DNA of 60,600 nucleotides, counting the filler, from Hausera hauseri (lineage: Eukaryota): assembly GCA_046269625.1 (NCBI GenBank). It is 11 parts of 11 records of this genome, joined end to end, with 100 filler letters (N's around TTAATTAATTAA, not from the genome) between each part and the next. Parts side by side here need not be neighbours in the genome. Positions count along the whole stretch, not along the records: positions 4,861 to 11,472 come from JBJURY010081658.1; 10 more parts are not named here. One strand, written 5' to 3'. Both the position numbers and the translations under genes were made by a program. The notes beneath the pieces are model-generated. The model did not search any database. It saw only the letters and a program-made list of their open reading frames with translations, and was not told the origin of the DNA. Positions within the stretch are counted from its first letter, which is position 1, and every line of letters begins with the position of its first letter. Positions 4,861-38,413 of this stretch are shown here, one piece after another.

Positions 4861-5242
4861 TAACCAAATCATAACATTACTTAAAAAATACTTATCAAAC
4901 AGAATGCAATCTGTTAAGACCACAATCCGACTACATAATACAAGTATATGGAAAGTATAGACAAAACCAAACATTTACATGGCGTACTCTAAACGAAATA
5001 GAATCGCATATTTACGAAAACATAAAAGACGAGATCACGACTGCAATCACCACACAAGCATCAATAAGATTAACCACATTACCAATCGTATCAATTATTA
5101 TATTATCAACGTTTGTTCTCATTATATTAATTGCGGCTTCTCGGTTAATTGCCAAAATTGTCATTCTAAGCGTCTTAAAACTACAGGATTGGATCTAAGG
5201 GCATTGGAACCCAAAGAGTATCTCTATGATAAAATAACCTGA
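4861..5242 (+). pseudogene. C-terminal part of a retroelement type I membrane protein (TM + YDKI tail), frameshifted homolog of 26037-27284
   Basis: One frame gives LTTLPIVSIIILSTFVLIILIAASR (TM); the ORF ends LRALEPKEYLYDKIT versus LRVWEPQEYVYDKIT in the other copy. Confidence 0.8.
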
Positions 5243-5325
5243 CAATTACAGATCGGGTTATTCTGTCATCAAACAAAGGACTGGTTTTGGTTTAAAACTA
5301 TACTTTGTTTTAAGATCAACCTTTA
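5240..5325 (+). promoter_or_regulatory. Candidate stop-codon readthrough element: UGA-CAA-UUA followed by a stem-loop
   Basis: TGA CAA TTA CAG; downstream ORF in the same frame with no stop; AAACAAAG/CTTTGTTT and TGGTTTT/AAAACTA stems; conserved at 25955-26039. Confidence 0.65.
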
Positions 5326-7436
5326 TTTATTGTTCTTCAGATTAGTAAGTATAGAAATGGCGACCAGAAGAAGTAATGAGCGACGTAGCATCGACAATTT
5401 TCTGCAACAATATGTCACTGTGTCGATTCCGCAATCTAAGTCGATATTCAAACAGATTAATAATGAATTGCAAGGAAAAACCCTCGTGAAGTACGAAAGA
5501 ATCATCGATACCCCCAACAACCTTAAAGGCACTACCGAAGAAATTAGGACCGTTTATCTATATGTATTGAGAGATGACAGGGATGCGAAGGCTTATGTTC
5601 TACATCACTTTGTCTACTACGAACCCAATCAGAACCAAAATATATTCATTCATTTACCAGATGGAGAGATCTATTATAGGTTAAAGGATCAAGTTTGGGA
5701 TTCCTCTCAAGGAAGACAGAATCGATATAGTATCTTCCTGCTCAATGGCAAAGATTTTCATCACTAGGACTGTGAACTAGAATTTCGTGTATCTGCATTG
5801 CCAGTAAAACTAATGATTAAGATAACGAACAAAGGAACACCATCTATTCCATTACAATCATTAGAATTTAGAACGAAACCCACCGAAGAAGACCAGGACA
5901 GACACTTACACTTATTTAGATTGGTACCCGATGCAAGTAATATTAGGATTATAGCTTTAAATTATGGAGAATGGGATGACGAAAACTATGTTCCAATTGA
6001 TGTATCAATCCTAGAAGCGGACGGTGTCGAGGTTTACTCAGAGATAATCAGCCCAAGAAAAAGGATCAGAGAAACTTAAGCGGAAGTGACCGGAATAAGA
6101 AAAGAACAACTAGTACGTGGCAAGAATATTGAATTGAACCCTAAAGTAACTGATGACAATGCTAAGATACGCGATAAGCCTGGTACAAGCTCCAACTCAA
6201 AAACGCAAATAAAATTCAAAGTACCTGAAATCCCCAAAAGGTATCAAGTGAAAGGAGCCGATTCAGAGGAAACAAAAATCGAACCTACAGTAGTCACAAA
6301 AAAGAGAAAAATGACTCTTTATGATTACCTATTCAGAAAGGAGAACAAAATCGCAAAAGCAGACATAGAAGCGAAGCCGGACCCATATCCGAACAAAACA
6401 AAGATTCGCCGTCCCCATCTGCGAATGGTCAGAACCGCTCCGCAGATAAAGTTAGACAACAAATAACCGAAATTAACGCATTACTAAAAAAAGACTCTCC
6501 TGACAACGTACATTTTGCTACAGTTAAGAATCATCCAAAAATGTTAGTGACTACTGAATATTATAGTCATCAGAAGATTAAGGAAGCCATGTTTTTTGTC
6601 AAGGTATTACCAGCACGGAAGTTTATGAGAACACCTATGTTTGGGAAAATCCCAAAATAGAGAAATACATTACACCAGCCTTCCAGTCAAAAAGAAATGG
6701 AAAATTGATAGTACCAGTAGACAAGTCCGTAAAGGTTTAACTTAGGAAACAGTATCAGAAGTGTCAGTTAGAGGGCGGGATTCCCGACTTAGATCGAGAC
6801 ACTATCAACTATTTGACGTTGGTACCGGTAGGATGCGACCCCAAAAAGAGTTTTATAAATACCAAAGAAAAAAGGATTTACGGCTATTTATACAAAGATT
6901 ATGATGAACTGGTGTTTGAGCCCATCGAGATCACAATACGAGTGGATTTGGACGATGAAAATTGGAAGAATGAAGAGAACGAATGTCCGGTTTGCGAAGC
7001 CGATCTTAAACAAGGATAAGTAGTCTTGGATAATCCAGATTGCCGACTCAAGTATTATCGAGACTGTCTAGAAAAATGGACATTAGACAACGGCAAAACT
7101 ACTTGTCCGATGTGCAGAGCCGAGGCCGCTGAATTGAAATATTTTTCACGTGGAAGTTATACTCGCGTGGGTCTAATAAAACCCCATTATAGTTATGAGT
7201 TTGAGACGATTTCTCGAGAGAATCGGGCGAGTATGCGCTCAGAGACCAGTCTACAACGACGGTCAAACTTAGTAAGACAGCCTAGCTCGGGTGTCACCTC
7301 TTATGACGCAATAGGCACATCCGAGGATGACGCTCAGGGAAGAGAAATGTTGAGAATTCATAATCAAACTATTTCTAGTCACGCAATAGCAAACAACAAT
7401 ATGGCAGGTGGCCGGAACTCACAAGAAATAAATTGA
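5243..7436 (+). pseudogene. Long accessory ORF of the retroelement 3' region, broken by stops, ending in a RING-H2-like finger
   Basis: ORFs 5330-5767, 5798-6079 and 6086-6466 share one frame and align with 23861-26036(-); CPVC..CRLKYYRDCLEKW..CPMCR at about 6984-7120. Confidence 0.75.
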
Positions 7437-7698: not shown

Positions 7699-8439
7699 CA
7701 AACTTTTGATCTGTACTAATCTGTGTTGATTTTTGTGTCATTCATGCCAAGTGGTGTGGTAATTTGTTATTGTTAAAAAAATTTATATCTTCTTAAAATT
7801 TCCATATAGTTTTTTACCGCTTCTTAAAAGTGGTTTGAAGATGCCTCAAGAATTAAAATTTAGAGAAAAATCCATAGCTAAGACAAGAATTCGAGTAACG
7901 TAATTTTGCAAGAGAACACGCATTATCCTGCACCAAAATTAAAATATTTATAAGTAAAGCACAATCAGTGTATCCGAGAACCGTAGACCTTACCTGCACA
8001 TAGATTAATATATTTCAAGTGTAATTATTGCTATATAGTGGGAGATTGCATAAGGGCCACCCCATTATATAACAATGCGAACTTTAAGATGATCAAATTT
8101 GAAATCATAAAATATTTAAGCGTAGGCAGATAGGAAACCATATATGGTGAATTCAACTATGACGTCAGATATTTTAATACAAGTTCACGAGTTGAGTATT
8201 CGAAAATGGATAAGTTTAAAAAATTGGTAAATATAATGCAATATTATAGCAAAGTTTTAACATTGTAAATGCAATAATTAATTTGTCTTAAAATTCAAAA
8301 TTTAATTAAAAATCAATAAATCAAGCCAGTGAATATTGACATTGTTATATTTTACTATTTCAGAAATCCTTTCAACAAATGGTGAGTTTTTAATTCTGCT
8401 CACCTAAATTAAACATTTATTTAAAATTACATCTTCAAT

Positions 8440-9090
8440 GCAGAGTGCTTGGCAAATGTTCATGATGAACAGAATTGCCACGATACAATGAAACGATATT
8501 TCAGTTACAATTTCAACAGGTGAGAATATTTTGTATGTCCGACATGTGAGACAGTTAACAGAATCAGCTATGAAGAATTTTATAATATCCATAAACGTCA
8601 TCTCTTTTTCTATAAAACATCTGAAAAAGAAATCTTCAACAAAAACAAACCCAGCATGTCTTTTGCATCAAAGAAAATACAACAAAAATGTGATTTATGT
8701 AGTGCATGTACATCCAATGTGCACACCCCTCAGAACTGTCAGAACACAATACAGCGTCATTATGCTTACGAGTATAACAGACTGGACGTTTTCATCTGTC
8801 CAAGATGTGAGATAGTAAGCGAAGCAGGTTACCAAGAGTTATATGATTGCCGTAAAAGTCATTTCAGTGACTTCTCGACCAAGTCGAAAAAGGTTATCTT
8901 CAGTGAACATAAAGATGCAATTGAAATGGCTCGAAATATACTCAATCCTGCAACACCTTCAGCGCAATCAGTTCAACACAGGATTAAAGTGGACAGAAGG
9001 AAATTTCAATGTTTTATCCAAAGGTCAAAGAATAAGAAATCCAGAGAATTGTGCATTCAGAACGAATGTGAGTTGATATGTCACAGCTGA
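8440..9090 (+). pseudogene. Cys/His-rich protein fragment with two tandem CCHC-knuckle + CxxC modules
   Basis: CSACTSNVHTPQNC (CX2CX4HX4C)...FICPRC and an upstream in-frame paralogous unit ECLANVHDEQNC...FVCPTC, interrupted by a TGA. Confidence 0.5.
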
Positions 9091-9394: not shown

Positions 9395-11472
9395 ATGGCG
9401 ACTTACGCCGCAATGAACATCTTTGCGAACCAATTGTTGCCCAACAAATTCAGGAAAAGTGACGACGTGGAGAAGTTCATTAAAGCATGTGAAAAATTCT
9501 TTAAATATATGAACACTCCGGCGGCGAAAGGAAAACCATGGTTGAATGCCTCTTGGAGAAAAAGTACAAGAAAGATACGAGGCAGTAGATGCGAAAATAA
9601 TTGGATATCAAAACAGACTAAGGAAGGCTTTCGCCCGATCCTCAACGCTGTGCGAAGATCTGAAAGAAGCACTTGAGTACAGAATGAATGGAGCAGAACC
9701 GGAGGCTTATTTAGAGGCAGTCGAGAAACTTCTGGATAAAGTCGTGAAGCGCAATCTTTCATGCGATGCTCTAAAAAAGGAACTATTGTTCCGATGTTGT
9801 AACAACAGAGAGATGAGAAGAAAAATATGCCTCAGTGACAAATGATACGCGGAAACCATAAAGGAAAAAATACGGAAGATACACGAAGTAAAGATTAAGA
9901 CAAGACGTCAACACGGTTATGGAGTACCCTGGGATCGGTAAAAGAAGCCACTAGGATGTGGCGGTACAAAATATCAGGAAACTTAGAATCAATACGACCC
10001 AAACTAGAACATCAAATAGTAGATTAAAGTGTTGAACATGCCAGAAGGAAGGACATACGAGCAGATCTTGCACCATACGGAGACCGATAAAATGCTTTGG
10101 ATACGACAAAGAAGGACACATAAGCAGGCAGTGTCCCGAAAGGAAACCAATAAGATGCTACGGATGTGGTCAGCAGGGGCACATCAGACGAAATTGTACC
10201 AACCTTAGCTGTGCGTGATGCCACCATAGGGGACATACCGAAAAGGAGTGGTACACCAGGCTGGAGGGGAAAAGAGAACCAGGATGGGACACATACAAAG
10301 TGAAAAGAAGGTACCGAAATAATCCGAACAAAAGACGCGGGATGTCGCAAACGTAGAGGAAGAGGAAACAGAATCGGAACAGGAGTCAGTTGCCCCAAAA
10401 GGCAGAGCCCCGATAGAAGTGGAGCAAATCGGGGCACTACAACAGATTCAGTCTACCATAATATCGTTATGTATAACAGTAGTATTATATCAAACAGTAT
10501 AGACGGATAAAGAAGGGGACATGGAGATATAGTGATGGATAAAAGAACACAGGAAAAAGTATGGAAATTTATGAAAACGGAAAATTTCCAAGAAGTATCC
10601 TTTAACGGAATGGAGGAAAGTGGGAACGATACGAAAATCTTCACGCTAGACGAATTGTATGTCGAACATATATCATACAGGAAGTTTAATGGACGACCAG
10701 AAATCAAATTAAAGATACAAGACACATGGGAAAATTGTTTATTGGACACAAGGGCCAGGGTAAACGTCATACGAAAAAAGATTGTGGATAAACTGGCAAA
10801 CACACACAGAGAAATCAGATAGCACACTACGATGCGCAAACAATAGTCCCTCAGATTGTTTGGGCTCACTTACGACAGACGTAGAAATCAAGGGGCTAAG
10901 GAGACATGTGACATTTCCTGTAGTGTTGGAATTACGTGCAGAAATAATAGGTGGTGTGGACCTGAAAAAAGGCATTGGGAATGGAACTGGGATGGAAACG
11001 CATGGAAACGGAAACATTATAGCAAGATATATGCATCCTGGATGCCAAGTTCGGCCGTAAGGTGAGTAACCAAGAACGAGTCAACATGGCGAAGGAAGAT
11101 CTCCAGGTGAGTGACAACAAATAGCTTCTCAACATTATGAAGAAATACCCAGAAGTAGTCATGGCCGACAAGTGGGACACAGGATGCACACCTCTCATCA
11201 AACACCGAACAAACACGACAGGAGCGCCGATTAATATCAAACCTCACAGGCAACCAGTAAACCTAGAAAAGATGATCGACGAGACCATCCGAAAGCTATG
11301 GAAAACGACATTATCAAGCCATGTAACTCAGCATGGAAAACACCAATGATATAAGTATGGAAGAAAGATAAGAACGATGTCAGAATATGCCTGGACTTCA
11401 GACAGCTGAATCTTATAACGGAACGGAAGGCCTTCCCCATGCCTAACGTGGTAGAGATATTAGACAGGTTAT
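9395..11472 (+). mobile_element. Ty3/Gypsy element family B: gag (4 CCHC knuckles), protease, N-terminal RT; degenerate
   Basis: Gag MNIFANQLLPNKFRKSDDVEKFIKACEKFF; knuckles such as CYGCGQQGHIRRNC; protease LLDTRA (DTGA-like) and IIGGVD; RT start PINIKPHRQP...ICLDFRQLN. Confidence 0.85.
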
Positions 11473-17830: not shown

Positions 17831-18688
17831 AATAAAGTGTTGTCTGGCAGTGTGTGAGCAGTTGCTGCGGCTACTGGCTGCGAGTTATTGGACTGCAGAA
17901 TATCAAAGCTTTTGTCCGCCAATAAGGCGAGCTTTTCGAGGGCAGCAGAGTCATCTACTACAGTAAGCAAAGCTCGAAAGGAGGTTGGCAAAAACGAAAG
18001 GAAATACCGACAATGAAGATCGGCATTGTTTATAGGAGTCACGCCTAAAGAGCTCAGTTGTGAGATGGCAGTTTTAAGGAAATCCGATGGTTTTTGATTT
18101 CCGATGGCGTGTTCATTAAAATACTTCTGGATTATGTAGGTAATATGTAGAACCGATTCGTACAGAATATCATACAGGCTTGAAGAAGAGAGTATATCAA
18201 CCAGATTATTGATTTGCCTCTTGATGTTGGCTGGAAGTAATTTCAGCAAACTGTCAGCCCGCTGAAAGAAATCCGTAATATGATTGGCTTGAAGCCATTC
18301 CAAATGGAACTGCAGCCAGGTACGACTAGAATTCGTCTTGTGTAGAAAAAAAATCCGTGCAGGGGAGATTTGGAGTTGTTGGTGTGGTGTCGACAGGACG
18401 ACGACCAGATTTAGTTTTTGCTAAGTGTTCGGTAGAAGGATCAAGATCTGACCCACCACGGATGCGAAAATGGACATTGAGAGTAATGGAATATTTCTCG
18501 GGTGCAAAGGATGAAAAAGAGTCGTAAGGTTGCAAAGTTAGACCGTTGTGCATAAGATAAAAATCAGAGGAGTCGAGAAAAAAGGACAATTCAGTATAAA
18601 GAAATTGAGCTGTTTGTTTGTGCGTAACCCTTAATGTGTGGACATGTTTGTTATTAGAAAATATAAGAAAAGAGGGAACAGCGCGCAA
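17831..18688 (-). mobile_element. Family C 5' end: ubiquitin-like domain (ends RIRGG at 18452) fused to gag
   Basis: FLIF..HTLRV..DFYLMHNG..TLNVHFRIRGG followed in frame by Gag LPCTDFF..TWLQFHLEWL..KPSDFL. Confidence 0.85.
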
Positions 18689-18699
18689 CGGTGGCGGGC

Positions 18700-21102
18700 A
18701 CGCTCAACACCTCACCCAAAATATCAATAGCGTCGTTTCGCATTACAAAAGATGGTGTAACCATATGTAAATCATAATTACTTTTAATTGATAACGACTC
18801 TGACAATCGTTCCGCTAACTTCTGAGCAGCTTTGACATATTGAGGAATGCTTTGTTTCAGATATTTAAACAGCAAATTTGATGTCTGAGTGGAAGGGAAT
18901 TGTTGTGGAATAGATGCGATGTACATAGGATTATTGTTAAGTGATCTTGTTGGTTTCAAAGAGGAGTCACGGATAGACTGGATGTTTTGAAATGGAGGGT
19001 TGACTTGTTCTCGACTAAGTTCCCCACAATTCAATGGACTAGTCATATATCCGTATACAATTCTATTATCAATATACACAGAAAAGTTATTTGTTTGTGT
19101 CGATTTTGCAAAGAGGATTATATTGTTTACAGGATTAGAATTGTTTATCGATGGAATGAAAGAAAGGTTTTGTGTTTCAGTGATATTTAGACTGATCAAA
19201 TAAACCATATAAACCATTGGTGCTTCAAAGACACCTGTAGTCTTACATTTCTGAATAGCAAAATAATCGTTTGAACGTTTGTAGTAACCTTGTTCTGTTA
19301 TATCACCCCAAAAGTTGGCATAAGATTCAAACAATGGGCACTTCATTTTCCATTAAATAGGAAAGAATATTTTCATCATTTATCATTACATTAGCATCAA
19401 TCATAAACAAATAATCTGCCCATGCCCGACGTGCTGATTCTAGAGCTTCTTCTTTAATTCTCAAGATCACCTGCGTCAATGAACCAGTAAGTATTTCTGG
19501 TGGACAATAGTCATCGAACTCACTGTATACATGTTTGTTCACCAGTCGAAACAACTCACCGGAACGCACACGACCGGCTCGTCCTTTCCTTTGTTCACAA
19601 CACAACTTGCTAGCCCATTCAGTTTGCAGTGATGAAAAATGTGTTTCTCTGTCGTACCGAAGTCGTTTTATCATGCACAGATCAATCACATATCGAATAT
19701 CCTTCACTGTAATAGAACTTTCGGCTATGTTAGTCGATAGGATGATTTTATGTCGTCCATCCTGAGGATTATCGAATGACGGCTTTGTTCAGATATACCA
19801 ATACTAGAATGCAAAGCCATTAAGTAAAATGTTTCTTGATAAACTTCTTGAAGAGCAGGGTTCTTCAAAACATTGGCAATACAACTATCTGAGTAGATCT
19901 TTAACGGAAAAATGGTTGCTGACTGGCCAGCATTTGTGAACATATCCCTTTTTTGGGGATTTACACAAGATTCTCGATTAGCTCCCATAAGTAAGTATTC
20001 ATTAATCTCGGTAATTTCATTCAGACCCGGAGGGAAAATAAGAACGGATCCCATACTTAGATTATTTACATCTTTGCATCTGGCGTCTGCCATTTCCTTA
20101 TACGTAATATACATTAGCAATTGATAAATGATCCCTTTTAATTCTGCCGTAAGTCTCGACGTATTCGACATGTCACACGTGAATTCTTGACAAATACCGA
20201 GACCGGGCAAATTATCCAAAAAGTGTTCTTTTACTTCATACTTTAAAAATGGCACCGGGTAATGGATTCAGAGTTTTTGGATCTGTTTATTTTGAGAAAT
20301 AACATGATTTTTTTTAGCTACAACTGTGGCTGACATAAGAGTGACTTTAGTTTTGATGTCGTGAATAAGCAAATCTTTGACCACAGATAAAAGAAGATCC
20401 ATATCAACATCTCTTTCGTGAACTTCATCTTGTATAATGAGTGTAATCTGTGAGACACTGATTGTGTATCAATTGTTCTAACAGTACTCCAGTTGTGACG
20501 TATGTTATTACTGTATCACTGCCGCATTTCCTATCAAGGCCGACTTGGTAACCGACAGAATGACCAACTTCCCAATTACGTTCCGACGCAACATGCATGG
20601 CAAGACTTATTGCTGCAATTCTTCGAGGTTGCGTAACAACTATGTTGACTGGTTCGTCACGATTAAACGCATCGTCCAATATAAATTGCGGAATCTGTGT
20701 ACTTTTACCGCAACCCATACTGCCTTCAATTACCAATGTCTGATTATTTCCAACTTCTTGCATTATTTGCGTCTCGTACGCATGAATGGGTAATAATATT
20801 GATTTTCTTGGTCCGGAACCGGCACTTTTAACGCGATTTAATCGTTCACTGTTAACTTTCTTCTGGTGCACGTTTCGCACATCTTCAACATGATCCAAAT
20901 TTATATCCGTATTCAGATTATAAACAATTGACGCATTTTCTCGAGTTGTCACACTTTCCAAATCATCCATTCTCCGATAGCGAATACCATTAGTTTGTGA
21001 TTTTTGCATTGACCATTTTAATACACTTTCTTCATCACTATATCGTTTACCTTCATGAGCAATTTTAAAGTCAATATGATGATACTTTGACTGAATAGAC
21101 AA
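18700..21102 (-). pseudogene. TDRD9: TDRD9/spindle-E-like DExH RNA helicase fragment (frameshifted, internally deleted)
   Basis: GSMGCGKSTQIPQFILD, VTQPRRIAA, VGYQVGL, YVTTGVLL, DEVHER, MSAT, ALHSSI, STNIAESSITV, EQRKGRAGRV. Confidence 0.75.
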
Positions 21103-22146
21103 AATACAATCAATATTTTCGTACTGTTATTTCCTTTTTCGACATGAACCAGTGAAATAGATGCAAAATGCCAATTTGCCGACATTGTAAAAATTAGGAT
21201 ATCAATTGGATTTTCGTTTGTCATTGTAAAATACAAACTCTTCAGACTTTTAATCGAAATTGTTCCAAAATCCAAATGATTGTGGTATAATTCCGATCGA
21301 TGGGGCAGAATCGTCAGTTTGACATTGTAAACAAACAGAGGTATCATAAAGAGCAAAACGTTAGGAAGTACTGAAATTTGCGTTATAAAAGAACTTATAT
21401 TTTCGGACGGAATAAAATCAATTTCAAATGATGCCGTTTCTTTGGAATTTATGTGAATCGGTATTTTGGAATTTGGTAGCTTAAAAGAAATATTTCCTTT
21501 TGGAGAAAGGGAAAAAGAATAAATAGTTATTTTGAAATCAAATGTGTTGGTTAAAAATATGGATTTCCTTTCAATTTTAGGTTTTTTAGATCCCGAATAA
21601 AATTTTGTATAATTAGCATCATAAACCAAAGAACCATGGTAGATATTAGCAGCAACTGGACCTTTTAAAGTTTCTTTTCTTTCATCGATGACAATGATAT
21701 ATCCACTAGTCATTGGCATTAATTGCCTTTACAGCCGAAAACGTGACCGTTGCAATTCCCATTTTATTCTGAGTTCCTGGTGGAACGTATTTTGTATTGA
21801 TGTCAATCAGAACTGCTTCATGTGACTTATCCATCACGATATCCTTTATTACAAGCAATCGATGTCCGGAATTTATTACGTATGATTTCAACGATTTGAA
21901 TATAGATATTAATTGTATTGAAGATGATTCATGATTATTTAAAATTATAACTTCTTCCAATTTGCTTTCGCCGATATATCTGTTTAATCTTAGAATAAAC
22001 AACATTGATAATTTAAATACATACGTGGCCGCAAACTCAATTGTTGGAGGATCAAAATGTACAGGATTTGCGGGCACTTTTCCATTGTAAATCCTTAAAA
22101 ACAAATATGAAACTCTATCAAATACTATGTCCATATCAATTATCAA
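21100..22146 (-). pseudogene. TMEM131: TMEM131-like fragment with a retained 45-nt intron and internal deletion
   Basis: HFDPPTIEF..IGESKLEEVIILNN, INSG, IPLFVYNVKL, LDFGTI...FTMTNENPIDI match TMEM131 blocks; gtatgt...aacag intron near 21980-22024. Confidence 0.7.
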
Positions 22147-22237
22147 GATTCGCCTGAGTAATCTATATAAAAAATATGGAATATAACCTACACATTTAAC
22201 AAAAATACCACCCAGACAGTTGCAAACAATATATTAC

Positions 22238-22426
22238 CATCTTTTTCCTTAGGCGCTTTGTAAAACGACAATGCTAATGAGATGATGGCAGCAACAATGA
22301 GTATGATCAAGGTAACATCTTGCAATGCCTCCCATACTAACTGCAGGAAGCTCTTGGGAGGTTTTGGAGGAATAACATTTGAGCCAAACACCCTCCGCCT
22401 CTGTTCTAAGTCAGTACAATCAATAC
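22238..22426 (-). pseudogene. ATP2B: Isolated exon of plasma-membrane Ca2+-ATPase (PMCA)
   Basis: [51 protein letters not shown], bounded by ttttag and gtaata splice signals. Confidence 0.85.
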
Positions 22427-23429
22427 CTAAAATCACAGAGATATAAAGTATTTCGGAAGCCAGCTATCTTCAGGTGTCACTAAAACACAGTAGATGAGGT
22501 CCAATAAAAAGAGAACAATGCAAAGTCATTAAACAAAAAATACCAAAAATATGGCAAACAAAAAGAGCCGAAAATGAACATCTATTAGCATAAAGCAAAA
22601 ACACAACACAAATAAATCGGAGTATGTTAAAATGTTTCAGTAAACATGGGGAGTCTGAGGTACTACAAGCGCCCTGGCAACCCTCTACCTCAGCAACATG
22701 TTTAGTCCATACCTCTCCCGACCTCAAGGTGGTGGTTTCAGGCAATAGAAGAGAACCCTTCCTGCCTATAGTGACAGGCTCGGGATGGTCACCAACTTGA
22801 AGATGGACCACTTCAAGACGGTCACATTAATAAGTACTAACTGCACTGAGGAGCTTAATCAATCCTTTATGTAAGCATAAGGATGGCAGAAAGCTTTGCC
22901 AATCTCTCAAACAAGGCTCGTATAGAAGAATACAAACTCAGTGAATCAGAGTTAACAACAATAAAAATTCCCTTGCCAGCAGATAAATATTTTAACTCTG
23001 ATAAAAACCAAAAAATAAATTATTAAAGGATCCCACAACTGTAAATGGAAGACACAATTTTTTTTTTAAATACATCACAATCACAATCTGATAAAAACCA
23101 ATGAAATATTACAGAACAAGAACTGAATAAATAAAGTAATACAGAAATATATAAAACACACAGCAATACGTGAACTTACTACTTACTTGGTTGTAGAAAA
23201 ATAAAACATAATTACAACAATAGAAATAGACAATAGAATCAAATAACTAGAACTCACAGAAACAAACATACTGACTAATACAAAGAGTTTAAAGTTGTTA
23301 TACAAAGAAAAGTCTGAGATGAAATATACTATGGAGATGTTACATTAGTGTTTCAGCGTCACAAGTTGGCTTCCTAGTGATCCTGGCCCCAGCAAAGGAT
23401 TTCACTGTATGTTGTCCAGCTTTTAGTTC

Positions 23430-23860: not shown

Positions 23861-26036
23861 CATAATTTACTGGGACTAATGTCCAGTCCATAATGGTTTC
23901 TTTATCTAAGTCGGGAATCTCACTTTCCCTTTGGTAAACTTGATATTGCATTTGAAACATTATTTTAATGTGGTTGTTCACAGGAACGGACAGCTTTTCA
24001 GTCCTTTTGGACCTAAAAATTGGGGTTAAATAATTTCCTATGCTGAGGTTTTCCCAAGCGTATACTCCATCTGGTATTTCTTGTATTCCAGCGTTTTTCA
24101 CACAGAACATCGCTTCCTTTATTTTCTGATGGCTACAATATTCGGCCGTTACGAGTAGTCTGGAAAATTCTTTGTTCGTGGAAAAATGCACATTTTTTTT
24201 GATCTTTTCTTTTTCAAGACGTTCACTTCCCTGATAACGATATCGTTGTCTGATTTCCTCCTTTGGGTTTGAGTTCTAGTTTTCTTTTTATCTCTTCGGA
24301 GTGCATTTCTTTTCTTTTATTCGGGGTTTCTGTGCTCGGAGATTCCTTTTTTATTATTTCGTTTTGAGTTTCTGTCTTTTCAGGCTTTTTAAGTTTTGCA
24401 ACTACGGTTATCTTCGCCATTATTCTTCTTTTTGAATAAGTATTCGTATAGGGATAGTTTCCTTTTTCCCATGGAAAATATAGCTTCTTCTTCACCTTTT
24501 CGGTTTCTTTCGGATTTCTTCAGTACCTTGAATTCTTCTTGATCCTTGGATCTTTGCTTGACCGGCTCTGAATTTGGACTTTGATTGGTGCTGGGGTAAT
24601 TGTTTGTCGTGATGATTTGCTTCGGTTCAATTTTCTAAATTGTAACTAGGTAACTGTCCCCTGTTGTTGATTCAACCGTTCTGACGGAGAAATAAGGCCT
24701 AAAATGCCTTCTGTGTTTGAAACTTAATCCTTCGGGGTTTGTTGTGCTTGTCAAATTTTGTCTAGGGTTATCTGGAGTCCATTCGTGTTCCCATTTAAGT
24801 CCAGAATATATCTCTTAGATATTGGGAACGTTGACTCGCTGTCAAGAGTCTGCTAATTCGAACGTGTTCTCCACTCATAGCCTCCAACATTAGCTTAAAT
24901 CGGCCTTCTGCTGTCGGTGGTAAATAACCATTTCTTTTGCTGACGGTCTGTTCCATCTGCTGCATTACTACTGGGTAAGTCTCGATTTCTCTAACTCCAC
25001 TCACGTGGGTATCAGGTAATTTCAACTTCTTCATAATTCTTTCTATTTGATATCCAACAAGTATACTTCCATCCAGGCAATGGATTAATTCTTCGTGAAC
25101 TAATTCGCTGCCTCTGCCGTTAACTAATTGCTCCTTTTTGATTCCAGTAACTTCTGAAAAAGTTTTTCATACTTTCTTCTTAGGGCTAATGATTTCTGCA
25201 TAGAGTTCGGTTCCTCCTAGTTTTCGTATTGATACTCCAATTGGAACGTCATTTCCTTCGTCTGTTTCTCCGTAATTAACAGTAATAATCCTGGCATTTT
25301 TATCGTCTTGGACTAATTTGAAGGAGTGCAGGTGGTCGTCTTGATCATCTTCCGTTGGTCTTTGAATGAATCATAGTGGTGATAACTGAATAAATGGAGC
25401 GTATTCATAACATACTTCTATCATAAGTTTGACAGGCAGTGTGGCAACTCGAAATTCTAATTCACAATTGTAATGGTGGAAATCTGCGCTATTGATTAGA
25501 AAAGTACTGTATCTATGCTGACGTCTTTGTGCAGAATCCCAATTTTGATCTTTTAACCTATAATAGATTTCTCTGTCCGCTAAGTGAATAAATATATTCT
25601 GGTGATATACTGGTTCATATTGAACGAGTTGTTTTAATGCCTACGCTCGTACGTCCTTATCTTCTCTCATTGCGTATAATCGTACTGTCCGGTTCTCCTC
25701 GTTACTGCCTTTTAAGTTATTTGGGACCTTACGTGTTCGTTTGTATTCTACGAATTGCTTTCCGTGTAGTTCGTTATTGATTTGTCGGAATATTGACTTA
25801 GATTTAGGGATTAGTACTGTGGCACAATTCTGTAGGAAATCGTCGATGCTACGTCGGCTGTTTCCTGAATTAAATTTCTGGGCTTGATCGTCGATACTAC
25901 GTCGGCTGCTTCCGGAATCCATCTGGATTCTTATCAATCTAAACAATAGACAGTAAGGGTTAATCTTACAACAAAGCATAGTTTTGAACCAAAACCAATT
26001 CTTTGTTTGATGATAGAAGAACCCGACCTGTAATTG
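23861..26036 (-). pseudogene. Second copy of the long accessory ORF (homolog of 5243-7436), broken
   Basis: Shared blocks RRSIDxFLQ, IPxSKSIFxQINNEL, EIYYRLKDQxWDS, DFHH, LPVKLM, EVTGIxKEQLV, EYxSHQKIKEAMF. Confidence 0.8.
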
Positions 26037-26039
26037 TCA
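25955..26039 (-). promoter_or_regulatory. Candidate readthrough element UGA-CAA-UUA + stem-loop (copy 2)
   Basis: TGA CAA TTA CAG then an open frame into ORF 25641-25979; hairpin AACAAAG/CTTTGTT and TGGTTTTG/CAAAACTA. Confidence 0.65.
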
Positions 26040-27284
26040 GGTTATTTTATCATAGACATATTCTTGGGGTTCCCATACCCTTAATTCCCGTTCTACGATT
26101 TTAGTACGCTTAGTTCGACAATTTACGGTAACTAATCGAAATATCGCGATACATATTATAAATACAAGCGTTGACAGACTTACGATCATTACTATGGATA
26201 ATGTAGTCAACTTTTCGGGTTCATTAATCATTGTCTCAGTAGTAGTTTCTTGTCTTGTGTTTTTGTCTGCATGTGGCGCTATTTGCATTTCTGCTAAGGT
26301 TTGTATTGTAAACGTTTGACTCTGAGTATCTTTTGCATGTGTTTGGATTATATATTCCGTCTTGAGTTTTAACGAGTTACATTTGGCGTGATGTGAGCCT
26401 TTCCATAAGGTTGTTTTCACAGTTTTATACATCGTACGGCAATATATTTCGACATTATAATTAAGCTTCTCTTCTACTGAAAATAGTACTTTGTGTTGCT
26501 GTATAGAGCATTTTACAGGAATCTTAAGCCATTTCTTTTTGTTCATCTCGCTTGTTGTAGTAAGCTTACCAATGGTGCTTATTAGAGTAGTCCACTTCGT
26601 CGTCGTCGTTTCGATTGGAATTTTCCAGATTCCACTGTCTGGATGATATCTTCCTAAATAAATACTTGATTTATTTATTCTGATTCCATAGAGGTCAAAA
26701 TGAATCCTATATTCATGACCTGCTGCAATTTTACAACAAATCCTAAGATCTGTGATCTTTAGACTACAATATTCAGGCGTTGGACTTGACTCCTTTAATT
26801 TGGTAAATTGGATTGAGATTTCTTGTTTACTGGGCAATCTTCCTTTTGTGTCTATTTGGATACATTTGCCGTTCTTATTAGCAGAAATTTTGACTATATT
26901 TTCATTTAATACCCATTTGATGGGGTCCATCGATTGTACTATGTCATCGAGTTTCGTTATGTTAGCCCGTTCTTTAGCTGGTATGACTAATTTTACTTGC
27001 GGTCTTATTGCTCCTTGAGTGTGCTCATAGTTTTTGTAATACATTCGTATGGTAAAGGTATAAGTGTCTCCATAATTTACGACACAACAATTTTCTTGAG
27101 CTCCATATGGAAAATCACAATGAGTCATTACTCGTTTATTAGCGTTCCATAGGACTACTTGGTATCTTACCGATTTTTTCACGGCTCCGTCCGTCTTAAA
27201 TAACAGACAATCTCCTTTTGAGTCTATACTTTGGACTTTAAAACGATCTAAAGTGTTTAAATCATTTCTTTTTATTCTTATCAA
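26037..27284 (-). CDS. Retroelement-encoded type I membrane protein with about three FN3-like repeats, Thr-rich stalk, TM and YxxI tail
   Basis: Repeated strand motifs NYGDTYTFTIRM, AAGHEYRIHFDL, LKLKTEYIIQTHA; TM LSIVMIVSLSTLVFIICIAIF; tail YVYDKIT. Confidence 0.65.
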   Translation of the reverse strand: MIRIKRNDLNTLDRFKVQSIDSKGDCLLFKTDGAVKKSVRYQVVLWNANKRVMTHCDFPYGAQENCCVVNYGDTYTFTIRMYYKNYEHTQGAIRPQVKLVIPAKERANITKLDDIVQSMDPIKWVLNENIVKISANKNGKCIQIDTKGRLPSKQEISIQFTKLKESSPTPEYCSLKITDLRICCKIAAGHEYRIHFDLYGIRINKSSIYLGRYHPDSGIWKIPIETTTTKWTTLISTIGKLTTTSEMNKKKWLKIPVKCSIQQHKVLFSVEEKLNYNVEIYCRTMYKTVKTTLWKGSHHAKCNSLKLKTEYIIQTHAKDTQSQTFTIQTLAEMQIAPHADKNTRQETTTETMINEPEKLTTLSIVMIVSLSTLVFIICIAIFRLVTVNCRTKRTKIVERELRVWEPQEYVYDKIT

Positions 27285-27296
27285 TTTATTCTTCGT

Positions 27297-27722
27297 TTAT
27301 TGGCGCAATTGTTGTATTAATCCTCCTTGAGCATTGGCCTTCGGAATAATTGAGGCTTTCAGTGATAGTGATAAGACTATCTGTAAATAAGACATGGGTC
27401 TGGTAACAATAGACGAAGTTTTGGTTTTCTTTCCTTCTGTTTTCGGGTTCGCTTTTGTATCGTTAGTGCGTAATTGATATCGTTTTTCTGGCCTTATTTC
27501 CGTCTTCACCACTCGTTGTATTGACACAACTTCTTCCTTCCCGTTTTTACTAATAGAAACAGTGGTGGGTGTTACTCTGATAATTTCGTACGGTCCTCGT
27601 CCAGTACGCGTAAGTTTTAACGATGTGCCTTTCTTCGCTACGGGATAGTGTACATAAACCCAATCTCCGTTTCTTAGATCATGTGGTTTCGCGTTTTTGT
27701 CATACTGCTTCTTAAAGCTCAT
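27297..27722 (-). mobile_element. Gypsy integrase C-terminal (GPY/F) region followed by a signal-peptide-like segment
   Basis: KKQYDKNA..LRNGDWVYV..KLTRTGRGPYEII; then MSYLQIVLSLSLKASIIPKANA; same frame as 26037-27284. Confidence 0.8.
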
Positions 27723-28796
27723 GCAGCAGGACGAAGCACTTCTTTACACGCCTTAAGATGAGCCGCCGGAGCCCTGACCGTGTGAAAACCAGTATTGGTT
27801 TGACCGACATAAATAGGAGGCAGATTTAAGCAAAAAGCCCAACTCGTCTTTCCTGAGCGTGTTCCCTGAAGTAGTTGAAGAGGCCAGGAATAAGAATGCC
27901 ATTTGCATATTCACAACATGACTTGCCGGAGTCAAAGGAAACTTTGCCTCGCTATAAGCCTTGGGTGCTCGTGGTCCACGGTTTATTTTGTTTGTCTCCT
28001 AAATGCACCGCCGAGCACCTCAAAAATCGAAGATGAAAAATCGAAAAAAAAATATTAGACTTGCCAGTCATCGTCATCATCGTCATCATCAAGTGACTTA
28101 ACAATCACTGCTCGGGAAAAAAACAATGAAATCTACCAAGGCGGAGTTCCTCACTGGTGTCAATGAGATCGATTCTGATCCGAGGTTCTCCAGAGTGGAA
28201 GCGAACGGAGAACTTATGGATATGTATCCATGTGCAAAGATGTTGACCCTTCTACTCAACTAAAACCAACAAAACCAAACTAATAACAGTGAGAAGAAAG
28301 GTGGTATAAGTATAAAGCAACATCAACTATAACCTGACTTTCTAAACCTCATAGAAATCCTAATTCCTATTACTTTCTTCTATAAATGATTTATAAATTG
28401 TAGGTGTAAGTTATTGGGACAGATGACCAATGGACTTAATGCATGAGAAGCAAAACACAACTTGCATTTTACTGTTCAGTGAGCTGGTATAAGTTTTGAA
28501 ACAAAAAATGTCACCTTGCATTTCTAAAATCCCTCCCTAATCTACTCAAAATAGTTAGATTCTTTGTTAAGCCATATTTCACAAATTCCTTTGGTTCAGT
28601 TCATGTATTAACTGAGTTTACCGTTTTTTTTTTCTGTAATGGAACAATCTCATAATATTTGGCTTCTCAAAGAATATGTAATTTGCATAACTTTTCNNNN
28701 NNNNNNNNNNNNNNNNNNNNNNNNNNNNNNNNNNNNNNNNTTAATTAATTAANNNNNNNNNNNNNNNNNNNNNNNNNNNNNNNNNNNNNNNNNNNN

Positions 28797-30060: not shown

Positions 30061-31554
30061 TCTCTTAAAGCGTTGAAGCACGTATCATGTCACGAGTGAT
30101 GATGTTTGAAACTCGATGAAAATTTTGTTGGTATTTGCCACACAACCTGTATCTAAATGATGACATGATGGCGTAATGCATAATATTTAATATATACATA
30201 CTACTGATGTATTTGTCAGTAGTATCAAATGTCATTTACTAATCTATATATAGTATGTTACATTTCAGGTTACTAAATCAATTATTGATTGAATGATTTC
30301 ATTTCAACGGGGGAGTTAGACAATTCATAAATTTATCAATTAAATGATCCAGACTACGGTTAATATAACCCACCTCATGGTGTATGTTTGACCACACTGG
30401 GTAAAATTAAATGGTCTGTGAATGGTCTAACTCCCACTTTGAAATTACAATGATGTCAGAAGTACAGATCATACTCTACCGTCTCATGCATTTCGGAATG
30501 GCTTGATTATCGGACATTCGAATGCAATGCAGGGTTGGAGGATTGCTGATTCTGTGATTCGCGGAACTTTTTACGTTTTTATTTCCTTGTAAATAATGTA
30601 CGGGTAACTATTGTTAAAGTTAAAACGGATGTCGATGATTTTACCACAAAAACAATATTAAATCCCATTATGATAACATACTGCATTCTAATATACTGCA
30701 TTTTTGTTTTAATGCATCAATTGAATGAAATTAATAAATCCGCCAAATTTAATTCATCATCTAGAAATTCACAGTGAAGCAACATATGCGCACCAGAATT
30801 TATCAATTCGCAAATATTCGAATTGTGAACCGATATGCGAACTTCTGACGTCATAATCGGACTCCCCATACATGTTTTCCTATCTATCTATGCTTAAAGA
30901 TTTATCGATTCTTGTACCCCACAGTTTGAAAATCAAGTTAATTAAAGCGCGTGCACACACATTTGTGAAATTTTCAATGTTAATTTACTCGGTAAGGATT
31001 CATCGAACATGGTCTATTTTATTTTTTATGCAAGGTTTTCACAGATGTGGAATCGAATAAAACCATCAGATTCTTAGAACAATGTACTCCTGATCGAGTT
31101 TTTGAGTTCGAATAGCTTTGTATTCGACTTGTAAGCTCGAATTAGAATACATGATACCATATTCCGATTTGCCATGCACGACTTCCTATCCCGCCCGCTT
31201 ATAGATTTATCGATTTCTACTTCAGTGGGATTCAAATTCACATTTTGCTTAATTCAGAATATTGACTTTGTATCTATATAGTACATTTTAATGCAATAAT
31301 TTTTATGCATTAGGGGTTTTCCGCTGTTAGAGTTCCGCTGTTAGATTTTTTGAATAGTTCGATATTCGATATTCGGGCGAAAATTTTTTCGAATTTCGAA
31401 TATGTAACTCGATATTTGAAATCTCCATAGTCGACTTCCAATCTGTCCCCGATAATTATAATACCGAATTTCGCTTTCTTGGGGCCTAAAAGCCTATGGG
31501 AAGTCTGCCTCAGTTGCATTTTTTATCGATATTATTCAAAATCGGCTGGATAAA

Positions 31555-32340
31555 TTTAAATTCTAACTTCACATTCATATAGTGCATCGTATTTCCAATC
31601 GATCCCACCAGGTCACATATCCTATTCATCAATATTGAAAATATCGGAAATCCGATATTATTGGTTTTTGCACACTTACACACGAGTTTTTGCACTGTGT
31701 GGTGTACATCATGGTACATCTCGATGTTCTCTATCTACCTGCACTTGACACCGATCGATTCCATCAATCCTAGGCTGCACAATGACCAATATGCGAAAAG
31801 TGAAAAAGTGCCTTGGAAACCGTATCCAAGAGCACAGCTGACTAGAGTACTTTACTGATCGATAGTACATCAAGTACTGCACCCGCCGATATATGTGCCA
31901 TATTGATATTATTGATTTTCAATTTTTAGCGGAAAGGCCTATTTATGTACTGTCCCAGTTGGTAGTTATTCGAAAACCAATCAATATATTTAAATTCTAA
32001 CTGCAGATGCACACAGTGCATCATGTATGCTACCGATTGCACCCGGTGCCGGGTGTAAATAATGAATATTGGGAATATCGGAAATCTTATATTATTGATT
32101 TTTGCACACCACATGTGCTGCACAATTGCACGGTGCACCAATCTATGAGCACTGATGTGCACTATCGATTAGCGCTTTGTCCCGATCGACTCGATAAACA
32201 CTGCACTATGCAGCGATCGATTTGTGAAATGTGCAAAAATGTGCTTAGCAACGGTGCCTAGCGGCACCATCGCCTAGCACTCTACCGATCGATAATGCAC
32301 AGCGTGCACTATCGACTGAGACATGTGCACTATCGATTTA
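31555..32340. repeat. Diverged tandem repeat with a period of about 430 bp
   Basis: tttaaattctaact...aatatcggaaatc..tattattg.tttttgcacac at about 31555 and about 31989; ORFs 31510-31719 and 31926-32162 are paralogous. Confidence 0.7.
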
Positions 32341-34820
32341 TAGATGCGCACACACCCCCGGGGGGATGTGCCAGAATCCCCATTTTTACTGTACTACCGA
32401 CCGCACCACTAAACTTGCCGTTGTCGATTTTACCACAAACCGTTCATTTCCCGACGGTAACATCAATGGTTCATTGAAATTCACCACTTTTCCTTTCGCT
32501 TGCTTTTTGTCTCTTTGACCGACTTCCCACTTTTTTCAAACACGCGAACCCCATGTTTCCCACATCATTCGAACGCCCATACTATACTCTACACTTTCTC
32601 TTATCCATTCCTGCTCAAATTTTGCTTCGGGAAAAAGTTCGTTTTTTTTTTGCATTTCCCGGATTTGTCTTTAGCGACACGCAAAAACCGACCTTACCAT
32701 TCAACTCGCCGTTGTCGAATTGACCAATCAGCATGCGAGCGTTACGTGGTTGGTCAGTTGGTGCGTGGGTGGATTCCCACCCATGTCCTTGTTCCAGATT
32801 CATCTTTTTTCCTCTACTATCTTGTAATAAAAATATTGTGAATGCCATATTTTTGTAAATTTTTATATATATATGTGCCAAAAACATTTAAGTATTACAT
32901 CAACCTTTACATTAATTTTTATAAATTTCGTTAATATTTCTACCAGATACTTTATTGTTCAATGGAAAATAGTTAATAAAAATAATTTACTTAATATTAC
33001 AACACTTTTGTAGATATCGAAGTTGTTACAATATACATATCCCGTTTCGGTGAACTAAACAATAGTTACTTATATGATGTCATTCAAGGAACACTGCATG
33101 GGTAAAATTNNNNNNNNNNNNNNNNNNNNNNNNNNNNNNNNNNNNNNNNNNNNTTAATTAATTAANNNNNNNNNNNNNNNNNNNNNNNNNNNNNNNNNNN
33201 NNNNNNNNNCGAATTATGTCGGCCTTTAACATTCGTTCTACCTCTTTCGTTATTTCTGGTCTCAATGAATGAGGAGGTGGATACCATTTAGGCATTTTCT
33301 GTTCCTCTAGATTGATTTCATCGTTGGAACAGGGTTTCTTCCTTAACGGGAATTGTTAATCTCAGGGCTTTTGCTCTGCCTGTGTCTTCCTCATTTTGTG
33401 CGATTATTGACCGGTACTTACATAGTAATTTGTAGAACTTTCAATATGCCTAAGGAGAGAATTTGGTTTCAACATGAGTTGAAAATTTAGCACACTTGTA
33501 TGGTTTCTCCTCTATTGTCACTGCCGATACTCTGTACGTATGACCCAAGGTAGCATACAATCTTACTCAGTTTGGCGCGTTGTTCACTAATTTGATAGGT
33601 ATTCGTCCCGTCATTATTCTACATAGAATATTGCTAAACATAAGATTTGGGTCAATGTTCTCTTAAGGCTCGAAGTATATTGGGCGATCCTCGTCCTGTC
33701 GAATCTGTGAGAAAATTATCATTTCAGTTTTAGGCGGAATGTCTTTATCTACCGGAATCCATAATTCGCCCGATTTCCTTTCCTTTATTACTTTTGTCTC
33801 TTTTATAGTTTCGAGCACAATTAATTTTCCGTTATGCACATCGATTGCCATGCCCGGCATTTGTTTTAATATATCACAACCTAGTACTACATCGTCTGTT
33901 AACTGGTCCATTATCGCAAGTTTATGTTGAAGTGCTTGGCCCATCATATAAACGGTAGGAGTCCATTTAACTTTCGACTTCGATACTTGCCCAAATGCCC
34001 CTGCGCTACCTGGATCCGATAATGCGGGTGGACATTGCTGGTCTCGCAATGTGGTTGGTATAGATTCATATTTTATAAACGATTTTTCTGATCCGGTGTC
34101 GATTAATGCATACCCTTCCCAATCTTCGATGTGTATTTTAGCGAAGGATCTTTCTTCTGCTACTGTTCCGTAGCAATTTGACACTATCTTTGATTGTTTT
34201 ATTGTGGAGATTCTATATCCATTTATCGTTATTTCTGGCGATGAAATGATATCTTGTTTTAATTGTATTTACTCTCCGTTCGGGTACAAGTTATTGTTTG
34301 TTATTTTAATAACGCGACTGTCGATGAGCGGTTCCTGGAGTAGTAGACTCGAGATCGAACACATTTTTGGGTTTTCTCAGATTGTTGATTTCGATTCTAT
34401 GTGACGCGGTATTCTTTTTGAGTACAATATTCCGTGGTCGTTTTCGGTTGGTCTTTGGTTGATAACATTCATTTTCCGTAGTACTCTGTATTGTTTTGTT
34501 TTTTCATAAGGAACTTCATAATTAATGGGCTTTTGATAGTTTTCGGACCTACGTGATACAATTGAATTGCGGTCGCAGTCTTCATATACTGGTGATGTTG
34601 GTGGAATGATGGGTAATGGCGCGTTAATCACTGAATACATCTTGTGCATCTTCATTCTGGAGCTCACTTCTCTTCCCTTAGGCTCGTCAGCATCTGAATC
34701 ATCCTTTCGTATCATTGCTTTCTTATTTTTACGTTTATTGAGAATCGACGGCCCCCCTCGCCGTTTGCGATTATAGTACCCGACGTGGCGTTCTACGTCA
34801 TTTTTCCATCGGTTCTCTTC

Positions 34821-36650: not shown

Positions 36651-36927
36651 ATTCGTTTTCTTTGTTCGGAGAGATATTTCGTATGATGTCTTCTAAGTTA
36701 TTAGTCCCTTTTGAATTATCCTCTTTTTCAAATAATTTAGTCCATTTTATTTCCTTAGGTACTCTTCTTGCAGCTTTTCTGGCTAATTCAATTGTCTTGT
36801 CAAATTCATTTTCCCGAAAAGGGTTAGTTTTTAATGCCAGATATATCAAGACTTTCCTTAATTCTTCCATCGTATTGTCTATCGTAATTCTTTCAATTAC
36901 TGTTTCCTCAGTGAGAGTGCTTTTAGA

Positions 36928-37767: not shown

Positions 37768-38413
37768 GTCAAATTTCGTCCTCTGGGTACCAATAAGTTA
37801 CTCAAAAATTTGTATTGAAATTCTTTGGCTTTGTTCGTTTAGACCTTGGAGATATTCATCACACTCGGCTTCATTACCTGCGTCAGGTAACTCAGTTCAT
37901 TAGCGCCGCATGTCCGACCTGGACTCTTTCGCGTAATTCTCTTATCTAAAGTTGCAATGTTTTCATTACGGATATCCTTAACCCGTCTCCATTTCCGCAC
38001 TCTTGTTGTATAAATGTTATTAGTCGGCACATTTCTTCTGGTTTTATCAAGGCTTTCTCCCGATAACTAGTCATTTCTGTGATTCTGTCTCTTTGTCATC
38101 TCTGTATAAATTCCATTTTGTTGTTCATTTCAGATTCCGTAAGGGAATACTTGTTCTTGAAAACTTCTGTTTCTCTCAGTAATTCGTTTAGCTCGCGTTG
38201 TCTTTTCTCGGAGCGTAACCGGGTTTCTTTTACCAAACGTATTCGATTTGTTAGTCGTTTGGCTACTACTTCGTCAATTTCTGCCATTTCTGTTAATAAT
38301 AGGATTAATTTGTNNNNNNNNNNNNNNNNNNNNNNNNNNNNNNNNNNNNNNNNNNNNTTAATTAATTAANNNNNNNNNNNNNNNNNNNNNNNNNNNNNNN
38401 NNNNNNNNNNNNN

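Follow-up and report, generated by a model that had tools for sequence, protein, structure and literature searches.

In a probable Ty3/gypsy retrotransposon of Hausera hauseri (GCA_046269625.1), a conserved UGA stop codon at the end of a membrane-protein gene probably works by programmed readthrough, as judged from a comparison of two diverged copies. The copies lie in a stretch of animal DNA of 60,600 nucleotides (nt; hereafter, the window) that is rich in decayed retroelements and consists of 11 contigs of 4.3–6.6 kb with N-flanked linkers between them; adjacency across a linker is therefore not proven genomic neighbourhood. Copy 1 (contig at 4861–11472, + strand) and copy 2 (contig at 23861–28696, − strand) are both decayed and about 66% identical. 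A preliminary description of this DNA had inferred readthrough, and we find it the best-fitting reading: the stop has the same place in four lineages (the two copies and two protein relatives, P0001 and P0002), its context is that of tobacco mosaic virus (TMV), synonymous variation around it is suppressed, and the linker from the stop to the next open reading frame (ORF-X) has a coding pattern.

The stop and the three codons behind it, UGA-CAA-UUA-CAG, occupy 5240–5251 (+) in copy 1 and 26028–26039 (−) in copy 2. Together with the end of the membrane protein they read YDKIT-TGA-CAA-TTA-CAG in both (5225–5251, + and 26054–26028, −), and they close the longest exact run common to the copies in a 1.2-kb comparison, which extends for 29 nt from 5223. 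CAR-YYA, in the form CAA-UUA, stands directly 3' of the stop in both copies, and all nine letters behind the stop equal the TMV readthrough context (PMC2754532, PMC3159437). When both strands of the window were scanned, this 9-mer occurred at these two sites only (7.6e-6 expected per site), while CARYYA followed 10 of the 6,630 stop triplets in the window. The preliminary description had pointed out the junction peptide, the tobamovirus-type motif and the continuation of the next ORF in the same frame; direct reading of both sequences bears out all three, including both of the downstream peptides that it quoted.

The match is not complete in every respect. The stop is UGA in both copies, not the UAG usual in natural type I (tobamovirus-like) cases, and it is followed by CAA, not by the CGG or CUA of the alphavirus type (type II). 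Among 105 tobamoviruses, xxA-UAG-CAA-UUA-xxG does not vary (PMC3159437); of these flanks, the G closing the third codon is present here (CAG) and the A at −1 is absent (ACC, with C at −1). A UGA version of the TMV context is read through in plants, with tryptophan inserted and at a rate below that of UAG (PMC2754532), and CARYYA stimulates readthrough of UGA too and works in mammalian systems (PMC3542737, PMC13517186). The published sources compared here also included PMC4132726.

By the same sequence comparison, the conserved stop is not a product of decay. Two in-frame stops lie inside ORF-X in copy 1 and three in copy 2, and none of these five decay stops coincides between the copies, a 14-codon offset being allowed for, whereas P0001 and P0002 both end at the residue aligned with the conserved stop (YDRIT and YGRIT). 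These proteins were the two relatives of the membrane protein returned by a HMMER scan of 1.84 billion representatives, which returned no fused form. P0001 (479 amino acids, 36% identical to copy 2's protein) and P0002 (189 amino acids, 42%) are both singletons and, by these identities, represent further lineages at that divergence. Word-based protein searches yielded no relative of the membrane protein among 1,229 candidates and no longer form holding the linker among 232.

Conservation is concentrated around the stop. Between the copies, 76 of 86 positions are identical at 5240–5325 (88%), compared with 95/148 upstream (5050–5200) and 496/742 in ORF-X (5357–6100). A block of about 90 nt more conserved than its flanks had been described before and is indeed there, but it begins upstream of the stop, with 34 of 39 positions identical at 5201–5239; in the acceptor region at 5326–5356, discussed below, 18 of 31 are identical. 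The proportion of synonymous differences (pS) is 0.80 at the end of the ectodomain and 0.70 in the transmembrane helix, 0.28 in the tail (5156–5200; Fisher P = 4.4e-4), 0.14 in the last 13 codons before the stop (P = 5.6e-4) and 0.30 in the 28 codons after it (P = 3.6e-4), and 0.83 and 0.78 in ORF-X. Synonymous variation 3' of the stop is suppressed accordingly (0.30 versus ~0.8).

Past the stop, the frame is both open and selected. All 38 codons of the linker from the stop to the ATG of ORF-X (5243–5356, +) are open in both copies, a run with a probability of 0.04–0.06, and the differences between the copies fall 5/4/14 on the three codon positions (14 of 23 on the third, P = 0.006). Upstream of the candidate splice-acceptor AG at 5340 the distribution is 3/4/10 (10 of 17, P = 0.027); this coding pattern lies upstream of both the AG and the ATG and so fits readthrough. 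In ORF-X the proportion of nonsynonymous differences (pN) is 0.20–0.25, that is, about 0.2 against a pS of about 0.8, indicating that ORF-X is under purifying selection.

The low pS extends over a continuous 170-nt block (5156–5326) with saturated flanks, as might be left by a recent gene-conversion tract between subfamilies, the readthrough context then being coincidental. We consider this explanation extremely improbable. In the tail (5156–5200, + and its equivalent in copy 2), which is covered by neither of the hairpins described below, pS is low but pN is not (0.32); many further contigs share only the core, with unlike flanks; the two distant relatives end at the same residue; and the context is improbable by chance.

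Two hairpins are predicted around the stop. The first, H1 (5226–5269, + in copy 1; 26010–26053, − in copy 2), is absent from the preliminary description and encloses the stop: 5226–5243 pairs with 5252–5269, with the UGA in the 5' arm and the leaky context in the 8-nt loop. Its folding energy is −15.6 kcal/mol in copy 1 (z = −5.25) and −15.5 kcal/mol in copy 2 (z = −5.20), and none of 200 shuffles was as good in either copy. H1 is the strongest local fold (13 of 1,312 and 8 of 957 windows reach −15 kcal/mol or lower) and locally stronger than the 3' stem-loop. Of its 18 positions, 14 are paired and invariant, one is changed on one side and three are open in at least one copy, with none compensatory.

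The second hairpin, H2 (5271–5310, +; 25969–26008, −), is made up of two 8-bp helices, with pair probabilities in a 500-nt context of 0.88–0.89 in copy 1 and 0.85–0.94 in copy 2. When H1 is open, and only then, H2 is predicted to gain outer helices and form an extended 3' stem-loop (5255–5322, + in copy 1) that begins at +16. This larger structure is predicted in both copies (z = −1.7, with 13 of 200 shuffles as good, and z = −3.2, with 1 of 200), and eight of nine differences within the 3' stem-loop keep pairing (permutation P = 0.033; nine of nine in the reverse direction, P = 0.003). A hairpin starting about 12 nt after the stop had been claimed earlier; it is predicted in both copies, but only its inner part, 5271–5310, is robust to context.

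H1 also suits a different explanation, in which H1 and H2 make up an RNA element that serves some other function (packaging, export, localisation or protection from nonsense-mediated decay) and the leaky context is a by-product of the H1 loop. Such an element gives the best account of the conservation upstream of the stop, its principal hairpin is the strongest local fold with a z score of −5.2 in both copies, and H1 cannot form on an RNA whose stop is being decoded. Of the 28 single substitutions that change an amino acid, 7–8 would leave H1 paired, and the D/G and K/R changes of P0001 and P0002 are among these, as deduced from the protein. The wider family points the same way. A listing of sequencing runs that contain the stretch gave one, and no RNA run. 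We surveyed the family in the contigs of this run, aligned at 80% likeness (984 records; the run may be the window's own source). Among the 6 loose ends listed of 194, other sequence takes over before 5225 in 46 contigs and behind 5275 in 26, and seven of the 15 joints listed (of 25) end at 5224–5229; the H1 edges match these loose ends, which bound the family-wide conserved core. The survey showed no variant at 5240–5251 among the 40 listed of 418, a weak result given the fraction listed, and four variants at 5265–5317 (60–79 contigs each) carry copy 2's letter. Summed contig depth peaks at 69,037 and 42,654 over 5208–5295, compared with 6–324 from 5340; this depth is neither a copy number nor a means of ranking parts and was not used as a count.

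As the sole cause of the conservation, such an RNA element is quite unlikely; as a second role for the same sequence it is likely. Taken alone, it would make chance responsible for the nine-letter readthrough match, the open frame and the coding pattern. The opposite strand of H1 folds nearly as well (−13.7 and −15.3 kcal/mol), the probability of H1 in a 500-nt context is 0.86 in copy 1 and 0.08 in copy 2, no pair is compensatory, the H1 window was picked after the fold was seen, and no Rfam family matches anywhere in the window at gathering scores.

Programmed readthrough, the reading that we prefer, would operate as follows. Most ribosomes would stop at the UGA and release a short surface protein resembling fibronectin type III (FN3) receptors, while a few percent would insert an amino acid there and read on, by way of the 38-codon linker, into ORF-X. 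The long form would carry ORF-X in the cytoplasm, probably ending in a RING-like finger, and would be a membrane-tethered ubiquitin ligase. A ribosome at the stop would have melted H1, and the freed 3' arm could then lengthen H2 to a stem that begins 12 nt behind the stop, a distance at which stimulators of readthrough are effective. H1 excludes the outer stem because both use bases 5255–5259. With the sequence removed to +12 or +15 to mimic the ribosome, the outer stem is predicted with a probability of 0.93–0.99 if the fold ends at 5340. A fuller scenario, which we offer as speculation and hold to be rather doubtful, is that this high-copy family makes, from one RNA, a short FN3 decoy and a readthrough membrane-tethered RING ligase, that the stop sits in a ribosome-operated RNA switch whose stop-hiding hairpin refolds into the stimulator, and that the products may remove surface proteins of the host or of rival elements.

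Several points weigh against readthrough. Only two DNA copies are readable, both decayed, and the structures derive from these same two; P0001 and P0002 are known as protein only, and the same assembly may be their source. No locus with a further DNA copy turned up when metagenome and viral contigs were scanned for exact patterns, and protein-guided scans confirmed none of 171 and none of 199 stretches. Frame-breaking indels between the TGA and the ATG, which the preliminary description had named as evidence to the contrary, did not appear at 5220–5365 among the 12 indels listed of 17. This speaks for readthrough, though weakly; with those 12 indels and 40 of 418 variants listed, the family-wide test is incomplete. 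At 5243–5326 alone, the differences are distributed 2/3/6, an excess at third positions that falls short of significance (6 of 11, P = 0.12), and the linker would still be open after 23 random changes with a probability of 0.26–0.28. The invariant letters upstream of the stop are left unexplained by readthrough alone. The covariation check across copies that had been suggested found no compensatory base pair in any helix of the two copies. In a 500-nt context the outer helices have a probability of 0.0 and only the core H2 survives, and in longer ribosome-mimicking folds the outer stem reaches at most 0.12 in seven of eight; the switch between H1 and the extended stem is therefore put forward only as a hypothesis. 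Changes in the flanking codons lowered TMV readthrough (PMC2754532), and the −1 base is C here and A in tobamoviruses. In yeast, the convincing-looking stop and structure of Tca2 gave no readthrough (PMC2194720).

A further point of this kind is that in both copies position 5340 offers a good splice acceptor, with an aligned ATG behind it. ORF-X could be translated from a spliced subgenomic mRNA with its acceptor at 5339–5340, from the ATG at 5357 or from the start of an upstream exon, with the hairpins tuning splicing by masking the branch site. The preliminary description had raised this alternative from the pyrimidine tract, the AG and the aligned ATG, all of which we find in both copies; it is plausible and may coexist with readthrough, and by itself we judge it unlikely. 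The candidate acceptor of copy 1 (5316–5340, +) comprises a branch-like site, a T-rich tract and CAG; the tract and YAG are aligned between the copies, and no other YAG occurs from +12 to the site. A YTRAY about 20 nt upstream is found in copy 2 only, whose letter at 5317 is carried by 60 contigs, and the branch-like site falls within the 3' arm of the outer stem. The aligned ATG has G at +4, and the acceptor resembles a host acceptor near 22427. However, this explanation does not account for the exact run of 29 nt that surrounds the stop 90 nt further upstream, for the TMV-identical context or for the surplus of third-position differences ahead of the AG (10 of 17, P = 0.027), and the acceptor region is itself poorly conserved (18 of 31 at 5326–5356).

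Splicing could also act over the stop itself, with CUGAC as branch site and UUACAG (ending at 5251) as phase-0 acceptor; the stop would then be spliced out, and the linker with ORF-X joined to an exon further upstream. Both copies have YTRAY at −1 and YAG at +9, the coding pattern of the linker would be accounted for as well, and in copy 2 a donor-like GT lies in phase 51 nt upstream. Even so, we rate this possibility as very unlikely. The branch-to-AG distance would be 9 nt, which is short for animal introns, and there is no pyrimidine tract. In copy 1 the donor position lacks GT, in P0001 and P0002 it is taken by Glu, a residue whose codon cannot begin with GT, and no donor is common to the copies within 120 nt.

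Five further mechanisms were considered and rejected. A +1 frameshift at ACC-UGA would enter a frame that both copies keep open for 33 codons, yet 14 of the 23 differences would fall on its second positions; for a −1 frameshift, inspection found no slippery heptamer common to the copies in frame. Selenocysteine insertion finds no Rfam match in the window, and what precedes the UGA is a tail of sorting type and no active site. Editing of the stop from A to I within H1 would act on an A with a 5' G, a neighbour disfavoured by ADAR. Termination–reinitiation would have to reach an ATG 115 nt away, and its range is far shorter.

The protein ahead of the stop is best seen in copy 2, as a type I membrane protein (26040–27395, −) with a signal peptide, three predicted FN3-like domains, a transmembrane helix and the YDKIT tail, interrupted by one in-frame stop (27297–27299). 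In copy 1, the transmembrane segment lies at 5070–5150 (+; Kyte–Doolittle hydropathy 2.94 over 19 residues) and the short cytoplasmic tail at 5156–5239 (+); a break near 5153 puts the two in different frames. Hydropathy indicates a single helix (2.3–3.0) and a tail of about 30 residues, which ends in YxxI in all four lineages, a sequence that we take to resemble a tyrosine sorting motif. P0001 is an intact version of the protein. Its AlphaFold2 model, built from three sequences, has three beta-sandwich blocks and one C-terminal helix (pLDDT 56, pTM 0.29), and among PDB entries it best matches fragments of three fibronectin type III domains (E = 1.5e-8, with low TM-scores). In a viral structure library the model matched tail, FN3 and Ig-like proteins, and the nearest named Atlas clusters are FN3 and cytokine-receptor proteins (0.84–0.88), which we treat as a lead only. 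The membrane protein is thus predicted to be FN3-receptor-like.

An errantivirus Env of the F or HSV/gB type (PMC13524379) was considered for this protein and rejected on the FN3-like model matches and on Pfam: the scan found no fusion-glycoprotein family on it and did find Monjiviricetes_fusion on other ORFs of the window. Those ORFs belong to two other elements (33210–38313, − and 54736–60600, +), in which a fusion glycoprotein of Monjiviricetes type precedes the protease (Pfam E = 6e-13 and 3e-45), one with a ubiquitin-like domain upstream (36928–37797, E = 3e-4). Their GAG-ENV-POL order is known in flatworms, nematodes and bryozoans (PMC13524379).

Behind the stop, ORF-X of copy 1 (5357–6466, +) is in frame with the stop and has in-frame stops at 5765 and 6077. 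In copy 2, the linker, the candidate AG (25940–25939), the ATG (25922) and ORF-X together span 24798–26036 (−), with three in-frame decay stops; ORF-X begins with 14 codons more than in copy 1, with the frame kept. A duplicated RRSID-type repeat (25900–25830, −) opens copy 2's ORF-X, also keeping the frame. No homolog of ORF-X was found by Pfam (no family for either N-terminal piece) or by word-based protein search (none of 121 candidates). A degenerate RING-like finger lies further along in copy 1 (6984–7118, +; Pfam zf-RING_2, E = 4.6e-4, below the curated cut-off) and contains a stop at 7017. We infer that ORF-X and the RING-like part were once one frame, an indirect argument because frame changes intervene in both copies. 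The linker is mildly hydrophobic (hydropathy 1.73 and 1.10), probably as a result of U-rich RNA; a second transmembrane helix there was rejected by comparison with the 2.3–3.0 of the true helix.

The gene order around the stop bears on the identity of the element. Copy 2 has an integrase-like C-terminus (27396–27743, −; Pfam MLVIN_C, E = 0.008, a weak match below the cut-off), the membrane protein, the UGA and ORF-X, all in one shared frame. In this C-terminus we see what is presumably a GPY-type motif. No stop separates the integrase-like end from the signal peptide, and 27743–26040 (−) is in one frame; signal peptidase may cut the membrane protein of copy 2 out of a Pol polyprotein, or the protein may have a start of its own, the ATG at 27395. 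In the case of P0001, gene calling gave a separate gene. Copy 1 continues from ORF-X, across frame changes, to the RING-like finger and, further on, to a gag gene with CCHC knuckles (zf-CCHC at 10036–10215, Pfam E = 1e-11). Gag, pol and accessory genes do not lie together on one intact contig. The host element is probably a Ty3/gypsy retrotransposon.

Other features of the window are recorded here in their own right. Between the RING-like finger and the next gag on copy 1's contig are a repeat, shared with the contig at 28797–33109 and present twice there, and a cysteine-rich ORF with an internal repeat; the stretches concerned are 8074–8216 and 8524–9087 (+), and 30797–31244 and 31532–32109. 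Two gag genes are 61% identical, near the divergence of the two accessory regions. A FYVE finger (E = 1e-16) and Ig-like domains share one uninterrupted ORF of 982 codons (45313–48806, +), which looks like a chimeric retrocopy. At 18654–22460 (−), intron-free broken pieces follow an exon of another gene; by inspection, we take the pieces to resemble TMEM131 and a TDRD9-like DEAH helicase, and the exon to be that of a plasma-membrane calcium pump. One contig has a 74-nt exact repeat at both ends (38414–38487 and 44363–44436), and a degenerate tandem array lies at 51315–52242.

We found no description of this arrangement in the open-access literature. The readthrough known from retroelements concerns gag-pol and, in SIRE1, pol-env; what sets the present case apart is its site, behind an accessory membrane protein of FN3 type, and the predicted hairpin around the stop. 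If programmed readthrough is correct, it would decide whether a receptor-like ectodomain carries a large cytoplasmic effector; in the fuller, doubtful scenario, the retroelement would have evolved its own tunable receptor-ligase. The nine-letter TMV match in an animal retrotransposon would amount to convergence on one optimal leaky context, on UGA in place of the usual UAG. The stop-enclosing hairpin that excludes a downstream stimulator provides a small testable model in which translation is coupled to another RNA state.

Among known systems, the soybean Sirevirus SIRE1 had been singled out in the preliminary description for its env-like ORF. That likening needs amending: the SIRE1 stop lies between pol and env, and the protein here is predicted to be FN3-receptor-like and not an Env. 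The leaky stop of SIRE1 reportedly also has a CARYYA context. What the two share is a long terminal repeat retrotransposon with a leaky stop at the boundary of a third, envelope-position gene (cited in PMC2829016, PMC2194720); they differ in that the SIRE1 stop lies between pol and the env-like gene, and that described here after the membrane ORF, before a fourth region. The gag-pol stops of murine leukaemia virus, Tj1/Tosmo/Tcry and Tca2 resemble it in that a single conserved in-frame stop sets the ratio of two products, with UGA-C in the fission-yeast elements (bioRxiv 10.1101/2022.12.06.519325, PMC2194720); unlike them, the present stop would set two forms of an accessory membrane protein, not Gag versus Gag-Pol.

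Two comparisons concern the protein products. L-MPZ, the extended form of myelin protein zero, is comparable in that a type I membrane protein, with one pass and a beta-sandwich ectodomain, gains a longer cytoplasmic tail by readthrough (PMC7070019, PMC7465998), but it comes from a host gene of unrelated sequence, and the extension here would be several hundred residues long, probably with a RING. Burro/GYPSM1, giant gypsy elements of planarians, have ubiquitination-linked accessory domains (RING) and in-frame membrane proteins in a long polyprotein, and the word readthrough is absent from the review on them (PMC6431247). Their env, however, resembles fusion glycoproteins and sits between gag and pol.

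The signal itself stands closest to type I (UAG-CAA-UUA), with CAA-UUA-CAG identical over nine letters and a minor extended form of a structural-type protein as the expected product (PMC3159437, PMC3542737, PMC2754532). Type I also includes the coat-protein extensions of benyviruses and pomoviruses, and Providence virus (PMC3159437, PMC3542737). One review states that type I contexts are absent from animal viruses and another lists the insect Providence virus (PMC3542737), so a type I context outside plants is not new in itself. Here, unlike in type I, the stop is UGA with C at −1, it follows a membrane protein, a predicted hairpin encloses it and the carrier is an animal retrotransposon in place of an RNA virus. 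With type II alphaviruses it shares UGA-C, suppressed synonymous variation on the 3' side and a predicted stem at +16 as listed for Sindbis virus (PMC3159437, PMC13517186), whereas the next codon is CAA and not CGG or CUA, compensatory changes were not seen and suppression also extends upstream. Benyviruses also combine a type I context with a predicted 3' stem-loop, and a mixture of type I with 3' structure has been suggested for them as well (PMC3159437). The signal of this retrotransposon is one that would work like type I with a type II-like 3' structure, and is a strict member of neither class, by its UGA on the one side and its CAA on the other.

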